Shown here piece after piece: positions 821 to 7,342 of a stretch of 24,000 nt of DNA. Every line of letters starts with the position of its first letter. Positions within the stretch are counted from its first letter, which is position 1. The notes beneath the pieces were generated by a model, which was not told where the DNA came from, searched no databases, and worked only from the letters and a program-made list of their open reading frames with translations. The DNA is from Candidatus Bodocaedibacter vickermanii (lineage in GTDB: Bacteria; Pseudomonadota; Alphaproteobacteria; UBA6184). The translations under genes and the position numbers were made by a program. Where the stretch lies: NCBI RefSeq assembly GCF_014896945.1, contig NZ_CP054719.1, forward strand, positions 147,153 through 171,152, written 5' to 3'.

Positions 821-1093
821 AAGCAACGTGCCATTGGCAACGTGCCGTTGCATCCTTTAAGTTAGATCGGATGTGATTGGACACGGATTACAAAAAAACA
901 ACGTTCAACGGTTCATAAATTTATTCGTATAATTCTATTGAGTCTAGCGTCACGTCGATGGATGCAACGGCACGTTGCTTAGATCGGATTCGTTCTGACA
1001 CGGATTACAAACAACTAATTCTATTGAGTCCAGCGTCACGCTGGTGGATGCAATCGCACGTTGCTTAGATCCGATGTGATTGGACATGGATTA
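821..1093. repeat. Nested/tandem array of family-1 palindromic repeat modules: one full copy at 836-978 in inverted orientation, plus partial copies at 979-1066 and 1067-1093
   Basis: Terminal inverted repeat GGCAACGTGCCGTTGCATCC at 836-855 and its complement GGATGCAACGGCACGTTGC at 960-978. The TTAGATCGGATGTGATTGGACACGGATTA module occurs three times. CCAGCGTCACGCTGG hairpin at 1031-1045. Confidence 0.85.
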
Positions 1094-1990
1094 TTGTCGT
1101 TGAGAATGGTTTGATTGATCAATAAGGGTTCTGATCATAGTGGGGCATAGTCCTGTATATTTTACCATGCTTGCTATTGGATAGTTTTTATCTAAGCAAA
1201 GGTTGATGATTGCAATAACATCTATTAATTCCTTTTGTGTTAGAGGGGAATGAGGGGTTAAAGAGTTGTAATAATATGCTGTAGCTTCTGCAGACCAATG
1301 ATTTAAATCAAGGGCTGAATAAGCAATGGCAACGTTATCTGGGGTTTGTCTAGGAATATCCTGCATCAAGTGTGCTTGAGTTAAGAATTCAAGCCATGCT
1401 TTGGTTTCAGGATCTTTTGAATTTTGAAGGCGATCTGAGCCTAGACCCATTTGAACAACGCGAATAATTTTTTGGGTATGTGTGTGGTTTTGATTGTTGA
1501 AAACGAGTATCCTATCACTGTCACACTCTAAATCTGTTATCAAATTGTAAATGAATGTGTTGTGAGAAGCATCTGATGAGGGAGCAGGAGCTACCATCGA
1601 ATTGTCGAGCCATACACTTGAGGATGTAATTTGAAGTTCGGTAGATAGGGAATATAAATCATGATGTTGGATAAATTCTAGAAAGCTATTTCGAACATCA
1701 GGTACATAGGGCGCCCACTGAGGTCCAAGAAGACCTAAGGGAACGTACTGTAAAAAAGCGTGGTTGCATAAATGCTGAAGAATTTCAGGAATCTTGATTA
1801 ATTTATTGAGAGCTAGGGGGTGTGTTGCTTTGGCAAATCGTTGTATATTTCTTGGTGAGATGACTCGGTTGAGAACTGCGTTCCTTTTAATAACAGAGGC
1901 TCCACAAGGGAAATGATGTGCAGCAAATCCTGTAGAAATAAGGCTATTGATAACGATTAAATATTGCAGTGCTGTCGTAATAAATCTCAT
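1091..1990 (-). CDS. hypothetical protein (orphan), hydrophobic signal-peptide-like N-terminus
   Basis: Long ORF in the track (1091..2077). I prefer the internal ATG at 1990 (MRFITTALQYLIVINSLISTGFAAHH), which follows AGGGTGA. The upstream extension is low-complexity and overlaps the divergent ssb promoter region. No family recognised. The stop codon lies in the last 3 nt of a repeat module (GGATTA). Confidence 0.55.
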   Translation of the reverse strand: MRFITTALQYLIVINSLISTGFAAHHFPCGASVIKRNAVLNRVISPRNIQRFAKATHPLALNKLIKIPEILQHLCNHAFLQYVPLGLLGPQWAPYVPDVRNSFLEFIQHHDLYSLSTELQITSSSVWLDNSMVAPAPSSDASHNTFIYNLITDLECDSDRILVFNNQNHTHTQKIIRVVQMGLGSDRLQNSKDPETKAWLEFLTQAHLMQDIPRQTPDNVAIAYSALDLNHWSAEATAYYYNSLTPHSPLTQKELIDVIAIINLCLDKNYPIASMVKYTGLCPTMIRTLIDQSNHSQRQ

Positions 1991-5410: not shown

Positions 5411-5441
5411 AAAAAGCCCCCAAACTTTGGGGGCTTTTTTA
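5411..5441 (+). terminator. rho-independent terminator of gyrA
   Basis: AAAAAGCCCCCAAACTTTGGGGGCTTTTTT: an 8-bp GC-rich stem followed by a T-run, 16 nt after the gyrA stop. Confidence 0.85.
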
Positions 5442-5466: not shown

Positions 5467-5605
5467 GGCAACGTGCCGTTGTACCAGCGTGACGCTGGAC
5501 CCAATAGACTTATGCGAATAAATTTCTAACTGTCGTGACGCTGCTTTGTGTAATCTGTGTTAAATCACATCGAATCTAACCTAACGGATGCAACGGCATG
5601 TTGCC
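5467..5605. repeat. Family-1 MITE/RPE-like element, near full length (139 bp)
   Basis: GGCAACGTGCCGTTG ... GGATGCAACGGCATGTTGCC termini. Internal CCAGCGTGACGCTGG hairpin (5484-5498). The AATAGA.TTAT.CGAATAAATTTCTAA core is shared with the copy at 6793-6936. Confidence 0.85.
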
Positions 5606-5777
5606 GGCTCAAGGGCGCTTTACGCGCCAGAGCGGCGGGTTGCCGCTATCAAATCGCATTGCGATTTGCTTGAGCCGCATAAAGACAGAGGCGGGTATAA
5701 ATGAGAGAGTTGATACAGCCGGGAGATATGCTGAGAGAGATCTCCAAGGAGCATTGGGTTGTTTTTGTAATCCGTGT
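5606..5777. repeat. Family-2 structured repeat; this copy carries a 71-nt multi-hairpin insert at 5606-5676
   Basis: Aligns with 9961-10086 (CTyAAGGGyGCTTTrCGCrCC ... CATAAAGACAGAGGCGGGTATAAA.GAGAG ... TAATCCGTGT). Hairpins at 5614-5628, 5632-5646 and 5651-5667 are closed by GGCTCAAG/CTTGAGCC. Confidence 0.7.
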
Positions 5778-5793
5778 TAACGCAGAGTGGGTC

Positions 5794-5865
5794 TAAGTGA
5801 CGGGGCTGCACCCTATAAGTTAGACCCGATGTGCTCAAACACGGATTATAGGTGTTTAGCTATAT
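5794..5865. repeat. Family-1 half-element variant
   Basis: GTGACGGGGCTGCACCCTATAAGTTAGACCCGATGTGCTCAAACACGGATTATAGG..AGCTATAT is nearly identical in layout to 10449-10518. Confidence 0.8.
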
Positions 5866-6067
5866 TTATTAATGTTAACTCACCTTTTTGTGAGAAAATG
5901 ACGTATTGCTTCGTCTGTTGTTTTTACGATTTAAGGGGTGTGTGACATGTTAATTATTAACCTTCATTAACACAGGATAACGAGTGAGTATTTTTTAACC
6001 ATTCGTATCTGAATTAAACGAGCGTTACTATATTTCTGAAATCATGTTATTGGGTGCTGGTAATAAA

Positions 6068-6107
6068 TAAAAACCCCTCACTCATATAGGGTTGAGCAGG
6101 GGGGGGG
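6068..6107 (-). terminator. probable intrinsic terminator of the 6124-6648 gene
   Basis: On the minus strand: CCCCTGCTCA..TGAGTGAGGGG, an imperfect stem followed by TTTTT, 17 nt after the stop. Confidence 0.5.
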
Positions 6108-6648: not shown

Positions 6649-6792
6649 CGTTCCATTAATCCTTAAGGGGTTTATAGGGGTAGATAGAAATAAAGTCAAG
6701 TAAATTTACACAAAATTAAGAATTATATTTATTAGTTCATTGAACGGACGTTATTAAGCCTTCTGAAGAGGGATGATCCCTGGACTCCATAG

Positions 6793-6936
6793 GGCAACGT
6801 GCCGTTGCATCCACCAGCGTGACGCTGGACTCAATAGAATTATACGAATAAATTTCTAAGTGTCGTAATGTTGTTTTCTAATAATCCGTGTCAGATCACA
6901 TCGGATTTCATCTAATGGATGCAACGGCACGTTGCC
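6793..6936. repeat. Family-1 MITE/RPE-like element, best-preserved copy (144 bp) with perfect 20-bp terminal inverted repeats
   Basis: GGCAACGTGCCGTTGCATCC (6793-6812) and GGATGCAACGGCACGTTGCC (6917-6936). CCAGCGTGACGCTGG at 6815-6829. The right end overlaps the last codons of holC. Confidence 0.9.
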
Positions 6937-7342
6937 AACCGCCTTGAACTTGTTCTTCCCAAACGGTGAGATCTCCGATGGATTGAGCCCATTGAGTGGA
7001 TTCATTTGACCATGCTGAATCCAAGATTAATACTTTCTCAAATTGGCTTAGGTTAGTTGGGCGGACGGCATCGATTAAGACGAGCACTTGCGCGCCATTT
7101 GGATTTTCATCGGTACATGTTAGCCAGATAGGTTGGTAGGATGGATTGCCATCGTCAGCGGTTCCGTGGGGAAGTAGCTCTGATTTAGAGTATGTCCATA
7201 GGAAAGTATCAATGATTTTTAATTGATCTTCCGAAGGTGCCATCACCACGGCACGTTGTCCTGCGGCTAAGACTTTTTCTAAAAGCTTAGGGAGTACTTT
7301 TTCTAAAGGACTAATACTGTGGTGATAGCCAACAATCTGCAT
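6908..7342 (-). CDS. holC: DNA polymerase III chi subunit
   Basis: 144 aa, 4 nt downstream of pepA (the common pepA-holC arrangement). N-terminal FYH-like pattern (VGYHHS), then RAVVMAPSEDQLKIIDTFLWTY, typical of HolC. Confidence 0.8.
   Translation of the reverse strand: MQIVGYHHSISPLEKVLPKLLEKVLAAGQRAVVMAPSEDQLKIIDTFLWTYSKSELLPHGTADDGNPSYQPIWLTCTDENPNGAQVLVLIDAVRPTNLSQFEKVLILDSAWSNESTQWAQSIGDLTVWEEQVQGGWQRAVASIR

Follow-up and report, generated by a model that had tools for sequence, protein, structure and literature searches.

A REP/REPIN-like family of palindromic repeats in Candidatus Bodocaedibacter vickermanii, with a hairpin unit found in several bacterial phyla

Background

Candidatus Bodocaedibacter vickermanii (Paracaedibacteraceae) is a Paracaedibacter-like endosymbiont of Bodo saltans. 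A stretch of 24,000 nucleotides of its genome (contig NZ_CP054719.1, positions 147,153 to 171,152), here called the window, carries a family of palindromic repeats in the spacers between its genes. The reference copy is an element of 144 bp at 6793-6936. The question raised by this locus is what these repeats are, and how they got there.

The short answer is that they form a real family, similar to the repetitive extragenic palindromes (REPs) and to the inverted REP doublets called REPINs. This family is undescribed for the host taxon and lies outside the catalogued REP superfamilies. As to how the copies move, the best explanation, to which we assign a probability of roughly 45%, is that they are non-autonomous REP/REPIN-type repeats moved as hairpin single strands by an enzyme acting in trans.

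The repeats make up most of the difference in spacer length between B. vickermanii and its close relatives, and at least two proteins, HolC and the portal protein, owe their present ends to them. This matters for annotation, and for how a genome of 1.39 Mb still gains selfish DNA. One and the same unit in an endosymbiont, marine Verrucomicrobiota, gut Akkermansia and Clostridia is also an unusually clean handle on a hairpin-recognising protein, and helps to ask whether such elements move between phyla.

The Bodocaedibacter genome paper and its 2026 follow-up mention no repeats, palindromes or mobile elements. Rfam gave only chance matches to leader peptides, at gathering as well as permissive thresholds, and a literature search with the motif sequence returned nothing relevant; no named repeat family of the host taxon was matched in either. 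The stem sequence is not in the text or supplements of Di Nocera et al. 2013 (PMC3733652), and the motif is unlisted in a survey from 2025 (PMC12306157).

The unit

The first-pass annotation of the window, made from the letters alone, described the element at 6793-6936 as having perfect inverted termini of 20 bp, hairpins, an AT-rich core and a TAATCCGTGTCAGATCACATCGGAT module. All of these are present. Positions 6793-6812 read GGCAACGTGCCGTTGCATCC, and 6917-6936 are the exact reverse complement. Each terminus forms the hairpin GCAACG-TGC-CGTTGC, with a stem of 6 bp and a loop of 3 nt, and the interior holds a further hairpin, CCAGCG-TGA-CGCTGG. The element folds better than its shuffles, with z-scores of -8.7 as DNA and -8.2 as RNA.

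The two hairpins had been taken for distinct modules. Their stems covary and they share loop and tail, and they are variants of a single unit of 20-21 nt: a G, a 6-bp stem, a TGN loop, the return stem and a tail A(T/C)CC(A), where the last A is present in 67% of units. The 144-bp element is an inverted doublet of this unit, and not a classical miniature inverted-repeat transposable element (MITE) bounded by terminal inverted repeats.

Across the window, its relatives and other phyla the stem variants all pair: GCAACG/CGTTGC, GCAGCG/CGCTGC, CCAGCG/CGCTGG, CCAACG/CGTTGG and GCAACC/GGTTGC, plus an AGGGA/TCCCT form with stems of 5-7 bp. To avoid circularity, covariation was scored on units chosen by the D' module next to them, irrespective of pairing. 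In this set four of the six stem pairs have changed on both sides and 77% of cells pair, truncated copies included. None of 500 shuffles reached the covariation score.

The stem also covaries with the tail. Where stem position 4 is A, the tail is ATCC or ATTC in 116 of 118 units; where it is G, the tail is ACCC or ACTC in 20 of 21. This link to the second tail base holds across differing outer stems and across phyla (units of the window and of loci L001-L121). It could reflect two ancient subfamilies or, by analogy, a functional link like the pairing of guide and cleavage site in IS608.

Full units are often directly preceded by a 5' half-unit, either GGCAACGTGCC or a tandem GGCAACGT. The window has three (823-835, 14274-14282 and 14558-14566), and others are found in L026, L060, L065, L070, L076 and L081, which include Scatosoma and Cerasicoccus, so that three phyla are represented. 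The pattern hints at slippage at the hairpin, or at copies landing in units already present.

The hairpin of the D module, by contrast, gains no support from compensated changes among the copies compared.

Copies and pairs in the window

The repeats are far in excess of chance. The 15-nt palindrome GCAACGTGCCGTTGC occurs 10 times with up to two mismatches, where 0.03 are expected, and there are 15 strict hairpin units compared to 0.1 in shuffles. A covariance model of the unit has 14 strong matches in the window. A further 2 are cut short by overlap and about 5 are degenerate, and the matches are evenly split over the strands. Inside open reading frames (ORFs) its matches are weak and at chance level only; real copies overlap gene termini and nothing more.

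Used as a BLAST query, the element finds full-length copies at 836-978 (minus, 85%), 5467-5605 (plus, 83%) and 16094-16235 (65%), and partial ones at all remaining sites of the earlier list. Repeat finding and BLAST together recovered every site on that list. Self-comparison of the window gives repeat blocks at 834-1094, 5467-5605, 5674-5868, 6793-6938, 9769-10131 (three blocks), 10443-10518, 14274-14381, 14558-14663, 16093-16236, 16671-16700 and 22505-22610. They add up to 1615 bp: 6.7% of the whole window, and about 24% of the DNA outside ORFs. The hand tally of 1.9 kb, or 8%, is close to this. To call the intergenic DNA saturated was an overstatement, since roughly half of the spacers hold repeats. 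Free of them are 2078-2145, 8829-8915 and several between 17.5 and 20 kb. The description as a composite, modular and dispersed family, rather than a single MITE, was right.

The strong units combine into six inverted pairs, which are 102-188 bp long and lie at 836-979, 5467-5605, 6793-6936, 9771-9958, 16093-16235 and 22508-22609. All six are head-out, with the tails pointing inward, and there are no tail-out pairs. The spacer within a pair is 60-150 nt long and holds a second unit, the AT-rich core and the D hairpin, and the whole folds as a single long hairpin.

Conservation is highest at the ends. Identity among the three best full copies reaches 95-100% in the terminal units, compared to 67-77% for the core and 75-80% for the D module. 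Decay has gone furthest in solo units: those at 10444 and 14283 have scores of 13-14 bits, and paired units 25-36 bits, in what is a small sample, though the solo unit at 14567 is intact. An inverted doublet folding into a hairpin, REPs better conserved than the spacer, and decaying singlets are the defining properties of REPINs (PMC3116915). Both orientations are found among the units, which lie in divergent promoter spacers and 3' regions alike.

Empty, decayed and occupied sites

Four relatives are syntenic with the window at about 84-90% identity: L093, L094, L095 and L097, the last being the metagenome-assembled genome (MAG) UBA6184. Element-free spacers are stable in length, the one between the MBL-fold gene and pepA having 87-89 bp in each of the five genomes. 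Those with elements differ 3- to 10-fold. Between orf175 and gyrA, for example, the window has 728 bp, against 233 bp in one relative and 62-72 bp in the other three.

The site at the 3' end of holC exists in three states. It is empty in the UBA6184 clade (L095 and L097), where it reads GGCGGCTGG^CTAAAAAAATA and where 6736-6933 is wholly missing. L093 and L094 have decayed stubs with the same CAACGTGC start, and the window has an intact insert of 198 bp. The holC gene (6908-7342, minus strand) takes its stop codon and the 9 codons before it from the right terminus of the reference element. The protein ends in QGGWQRAVASIR in the window. Derived forms QGGWQRA... are translated unit, and the alignment of HolC proteins gives the polarity: QGGW(A/V)KKI is ancestral and the unit-encoded end derived.

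Near fmt, the relatives have one degenerate orthologous unit in the spacer, and the expansion in the window lies beside that unit.

The element between the portal and prohead protease genes is different again. It is orthologous in the window, UBA6184 and a JGI relative, and must therefore be old. Both its terminal hairpins are fully compensated between orthologs: CCAGCG/CGCTGG against GCAACG/CGTTGC in one, GCAACC/GGTTGC against GCAGCA/TGCTGC in the other. It encodes the last nine or so residues of the portal protein plus the stop codon, and ends exactly at the ribosome-binding site of the protease (AAGGAG, 16236-16241; ATG 16248). The longest protease ORF starts at ATG 16218, within the repeat; judging from the relatives and from the AAGGAG, however, the true start is ATG 16248. 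The family shows gain, decay and long retention.

Nor is it confined to this locus. In addition to the four syntenic relatives, its modules are present on at least nine other UBA6184 contigs. A doublet of about 62 nt (unit plus D module) recurs across UBA6184, partly in 83-nt tandem arrays. Among the genomes searched, the AT-rich core and the full 144-bp composite are found in B. vickermanii only, and beyond UBA6184-type relatives only the 20-nt unit recurs. Copy number varies greatly among close relatives, and the distribution over species is sporadic.

The unit in other phyla

The 20-mer was searched as an exact match in one genome per species, 596 Gb in all, and in a scan of metagenomes. 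It occurs in 91 genome stretches and 23 metagenome contigs, making 114 loci, and the metagenome contigs give a similar picture. By our calculation, chance would account for about one match in 596 Gb. The unit is multi-copy in at least eight bacterial phyla.

Multiple intergenic copies are present in Cerasicoccus maritimus, C. frondis, several Akkermansia species and other Verrucomicrobiota. The same goes for Planctomycetaceae and Capsulimonadaceae, and for MAGs of Candidatus Scatosoma, Eubacteriales, Clostridiales and Oscillospiraceae. Single matches come from Acidobacteriota, Melainabacteria, Kapaibacterium, Selenomonadales and Bifidobacteriaceae. The copies in Akkermansia are often at contig ends, as is to be expected because repeats break assemblies. 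Eight matches in actinomycetes all turned out to come from one conserved stretch of coding sequence (LPDGNVPLHP), and were discounted as the match that chance predicts. No match was found among the viral contigs or plasmids searched.

The conserved block is sharply bounded (positions 0-20), and its flanks are unconserved across lineages. Downstream of the unit, each lineage has a second hairpin of its own. Identical compensatory stem variants recur in several phyla. Nine units could be scored in Cerasicoccus maritimus. Every one of them points the same way as the gene upstream of it, at 0-59 nt from that gene's stop codon, and several share the TAG.

The 2025 survey finds low similarity of REP motifs between taxa (PMC12306157). 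Since repeats of the REP type are normally lineage-specific, a unit that is the same letter for letter across phyla is unusual. This identity points to some enzyme or host factor that recognises the unit.

A more tentative reading, possible but with the odds against it, is that the GGCAACGTGCCGTTGCATCC(A) unit represents a third, uncatalogued REP-like superfamily. It may have spread horizontally or been held fixed by one conserved partner protein, over at least eight phyla, and been built into lineage-specific composites. The sequence identity, the link between stem and tail and the half-unit duplications would then be the footprints of a hairpin-specific enzyme.

Search for a cognate enzyme

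The first-pass annotation saw no transposase in the window, and indeed none of the window ORFs scanned has a transposase domain. A transposase abuts the 20-mer in 0 of the 114 unit-bearing loci, and clustering of the ORFs of the 91 loci gave common transporter families only.

A screen for HUH/Y1 motifs had one find. This is a gene like those of the REP-associated tyrosine transposases (RAYTs), at 3790-4320 of L066, a MAG from the Verrucomicrobiota (HVHAL...YIRMNPVRAGLV; Pfam Y1_Tnp at threshold). A GTAG-tagged REP (GTAGCGCGCCCTCG/CGAGGGCGC) stands before the gene, and the 20-mer unit is 3.7 kb away. There are 1539 homologous proteins, and among the top 120 none is traceable to a unit-bearing genome. 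GTAG-tagged hairpins are about 2.6-fold enriched near the unit, which is too weak for a link with RAYTs.

Two candidates for an autonomous element were rejected. L061 has inverted units with no intact gene between them. L109 (metagenome contig Ga0179591_1009601) is a mirror-image artefact of assembly. Its two arms, to either side of position 2600 or so, mirror each other almost perfectly, down to the isocitrate dehydrogenase fragments and a small ORF, and the contig is most likely a chimera produced in amplification or assembly. Where Akkermansia copies lie at contig ends, their neighbours are ordinary genes and not a transposase.

How the repeats may move

Under the REP/REPIN-type explanation, the elements would spread within the genome as single-stranded hairpin DNA. 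An enzyme acting in trans would read the shape of the hairpin together with bases of the loop and tail. This enzyme would most likely be an HUH/Y1 tyrosine transposase, of the RAYT or IS200/IS605 type, encoded elsewhere in the genome. The TnpA of IS200/IS605 elements and the RAYT enzymes recognise a folded single strand. We infer this route, and this kind of enzyme, from the covarying hairpin, the invariant loop and tail bases, the inverted doublets, the scarcity of duplications and the insertion beside or within units, all of which argue for recognition of a folded strand. Judging by where copies are found, new ones would land in spacers and at extreme 3' gene ends, often beside or inside existing units, which would lead to nested arrays. 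Once settled they would be transcribed with their neighbours and tolerated, and some would last for long periods, like the one between the portal and protease genes.

Several observations weigh against this explanation. No HUH/Y1 gene was found near a unit, be it in the window, among about 105 kb of sequence from relatives or among about 0.75 Mb of other unit-bearing loci, some 0.9 Mb altogether, and the RAYT-like gene of L066 was rejected as the cognate enzyme, since it is flanked by a classical GTAG REP of its own. The unit also lacks a GTAG tag. An unpaired GTAG or close variant stands at one end of more than 90% of RAYT-associated REP copies; here the upstream positions are unconserved, with TA directly upstream in about 15% of units and GTAG in 3 copies. 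Direct repeats flank two of the six pairs (GGCT at 5467-5605, ACGCT at 22508-22609), and the supplement of the genome paper lists a few DDE transposases elsewhere in the B. vickermanii genome.

The last two points are what a MITE of the DDE type would lead one to expect, and on account of the direct repeats this origin is kept as a rival, if an unlikely one. The 144-bp element would then be a deletion derivative of a DDE insertion sequence whose terminal inverted repeat is the 20-mer, moved by cut and paste with short target-site duplications, and solo units would be broken ends. The perfect 20-bp termini and a size below 200 bp agree with this. However, the other four pairs have no such duplication, among them the youngest-looking copy, the one at holC, where the empty site is known. 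Absence of duplication at most full copies is expected for HUH enzymes. The termini are moreover hairpins with compensatory changes, which recognition of double-stranded ends does not need, units also stand in head-to-tail arrays, and quite different stems come with the same loop and tail. The lack of an abutting transposase gene in the 114 loci, from many phyla, counts against a DDE parent as well.

It is also conceivable, though again we would bet against it, that the host selects the unit as a cis-acting RNA or DNA hairpin used by a conserved host factor. Such a hairpin might stabilise the 3' ends of mRNA, stall ribosomes after stop codons or bind gyrase or a nucleoid protein, with copies made mainly by recombination and gene conversion. 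Ribosome stalling just past stop codons has been shown for some E. coli REPs. The identical 20-mer across phyla speaks for such selection, as do termini far better conserved than interiors, the portal-protease copy retained inside an operon in three genomes with compensated hairpins, and the Cerasicoccus units close behind stop codons. REPs up to 15 nt from the end of an ORF have been discussed as translational regulators (PMC12306157). Against it stand the two orientations of units in the window, also in divergent promoter spacers, the sporadic occurrence among species, the very different copy numbers of close relatives and the many decaying copies. Above all, selection explains retention, and not the arrival of new copies at empty sites. 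A role at host level, as mRNA 3' hairpin or element near the stop codon, fits the retention and may coexist with mobility under the REP/REPIN-type explanation. Far less probable than any of these is membership of the Rickettsia palindromic element (RPE) family. The first-pass annotation had noted the likeness, which holds for lifestyle and size: an obligate intracellular alphaproteobacterial host, elements of 100-190 bp, a palindromic fold and coding overlap at gene ends. It breaks down at the tag, the stem and the lack of copies inside ORFs. Tolerance of coding sequence, also proposed, is seen at gene termini, and an internal in-frame insertion is not. The unit has its relatives in Verrucomicrobiota, Clostridia and further phyla, and not in Rickettsia, and the classified RPE-4 and RPE-6 have a CGTC tag and stems of 8-9 bp that start with AT (PMC3733652), neither of which the unit has.

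Features of the window

Table 1 Repeat features in the window, in window coordinates
Feature	Position	Strand	Description or evidence
Nested array	823..1094	-	5' half-unit 823-835; full inverted doublet 836-979, 85% identical to reference
Nested array, rest	980-1094		Two more D/unit B/unit A repeats, abutting 3' end of ORF 1091-2077
Full inverted doublet, 139 bp	5467..5605	+	Units A and B fused via 4-nt deletion; GGCT either side
Second repeated module, joined to doublet	5603..5707	+	Three hairpins closed by GGCTCAAG/CTTGAGCC, then GCATAAAGACAGAGGCGGGTATAAA
Inverted pair of D modules plus truncated unit (GGGGCTGCACCC)	5768..5868	+	
Extra block inserted with the 144-bp element	6736..6792	+	Variant unit AGGGA-TGA-TCCCT-GGACTCCATAG at 6769-6792
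Reference inverted doublet, 144 bp	6793..6936	+	Repeat finding, BLAST, folding, covariance model
Reference doublet, parts	6793..6936		Unit A 6793-6812; unit B 6813-6832; AT-rich core 6833-6881; D hairpin module 6882-6916; inverted unit A 6917-6936
Head-out inverted pair, 188 bp	9771..9958	+	Unit A 9771-9790; unit B 9937-9958 (minus)
Further modules, same spacer as 9771..9958	9985..10132	+	Copy of GCATAAAGACAGAGG block; D module 10064-10101
Degenerate 7-bp-stem unit	10109-10132	-	Within 9985..10132
Solo doublet: degenerate unit (TACAACGTGACGCTGCACCC) plus D' module	10443..10518	+	Ends 17 nt before rtcB start codon
Half-unit, degenerate 7-bp-stem unit, D' module, 29-nt tail module	14274..14381	+	First direct copy
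Half-unit, intact unit (CCAGCG-TGA-CGCTGG-ATCC), D' module, 29-nt tail module	14558..14663	+	Second direct copy
Inverted doublet, 143 bp, between portal and prohead protease genes	16093..16235	+	BLAST, ortholog comparison, covariance model
Isolated 29-nt tail module (CACGTTCATTTTATCCGTGATTTGCTATA)	16671..16700	+	
Short head-out pair, 102 bp (22508-22609)	22505..22610	+	CCAACG-TGA-CGTTGG and GCAACC-TGA-GGTTGC; ACGCT either side

Some features in Table 1 deserve a word more. The three-hairpin module at 5603..5707 recurs at 9956-10018 with an internal deletion, and also in UBA6184 (L025, 370-450). Within it, the three-hairpin fold (5603-5680, and also 9956-9977) is closed by a stem of 8 bp and has a z-score of only -2.4. 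Compared with UBA6184, where it is conserved, it has at least one compensated change, AAATCGC/GCGATTT against ACATCGC/GCGATGT.

The two direct copies at 14274..14381 and 14558..14663 are spaced 282 bp apart. The pair at 22505..22610 overlaps the 3' end of ORF 22130-22555, and looks like it sits inside an older unit.

The 29-nt module reads CA(G/C)GTTCATTTTATC(T/C)GTGATT(T/G)(G/C)CTATA, and has three copies (14353-14381, 14635-14663 and 16672-16700). It is the tail of unit-D' doublets twice and stands alone once. A simple scan found no likeness to a promoter in it.

The window further contains the housekeeping genes ssb, gyrA, holC, pepA, an MBL-fold gene, rtcB, an RF-1-domain gene, tatD, recR and ybaB, and no tRNA or tmRNA genes were found in it. 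Two terminators, at 5411-5439 and around 6064-6100, flank the inserted repeat block, and L094 likewise has two. In the other three relatives (L093, L095 and L097) the convergent spacer between gyrA and orf191 has one bidirectional terminator.

At 10535-12306 the gene for the RtcB RNA ligase and a PrfH-like RF-1-domain gene overlap by 4 nt, which is the known pairing of RtcB and PrfH. In L095, rtcB is broken into two ORFs.

Beside the housekeeping genes, 14902-23336 holds a head cluster like that of a phage or gene transfer agent, with portal, prohead protease, capsid, head-tail connector and head-completion-like genes. Its portal-protease part is kept in L095 and L097. Between the protease and capsid genes lie five successive ORFs of 153-177 amino acids (17029-19813). 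They have no Pfam match and no detectable similarity to each other, and each starts with a hydrophobic segment like a signal peptide. They look like a secreted-protein island inserted into the head module.

Comparison with known repeat families

RPEs are, like the repeats described here, abundant palindromes of 100-150 bp in a reduced intracellular alphaproteobacterial genome. They too can add coding sequence, and no transposase is known for them. RPEs are typically in-frame insertions within genes, whereas the B. vickermanii copies touch gene termini only, and sequence and tag differ as well.

Bacterial MITEs such as Correia/NEMIS, the Coxiella MITEs and MITEAba12 are likewise small, non-coding, intergenic and multi-copy, have terminal inverted repeats and alter gene ends. 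Unlike those, the present family was not found, among the loci examined, to have consistent target-site duplications or a parent insertion sequence with the same ends.

The small dispersed repeats of cyanobacteria, reportedly described by Elhai and co-workers in 2008, are said to be around 21-27 nt long, shared between genomes, nested and inserted without duplication. They resemble the unit in being very short, common to several genomes and nested in larger repeats. Their sequences differ, and they are restricted to cyanobacteria.

What defines the published REP superfamilies is a terminal tag, either GTAG or CGTC; CGTC units have stems of 8-9 bp starting with AT and include RPE-4 and RPE-6 (PMC3733652). 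There is much that the unit shares with both: a stem-loop of 20-40 nt, stem covariation, loops of 2-3 nt, a short unpaired tail containing CCA, head-head dimers, a frequent position right after ORFs and an occasional one embedded in other repeats. Like the GTAG superfamily it is an extragenic, multi-copy stem-loop with complementary substitutions in the stem, and the CCA-type unpaired tail is also a mark of the CGTC superfamily. Unlike them, it has neither tag and no AT at the start of its stems. Its GC-rich stem of 6 bp, its 3-nt loop (CGTC units have 4-5 nt) and the absence of CGTC place it outside the CGTC superfamily. REP sequences are also normally lineage-specific, unlike this unit, which several phyla have in common.

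The closest resemblance in layout is to REPINs (Bertels & Rainey 2011, PMC3116915). These too consist of inverted short palindromes around a less conserved spacer and fold as a single hairpin. Their solo units tend to decay, they are extragenic, clustered and sometimes in tandem, and they have no obvious target duplication. The unit described here differs in having no GTAG, longer spacers (60-150 nt) with extra modules and no linked RAYT among the loci examined. Because of the inverted doublet of units and the conserved termini, a REP/REPIN-like framing is nevertheless preferred over an RPE-like or MITE-like one.

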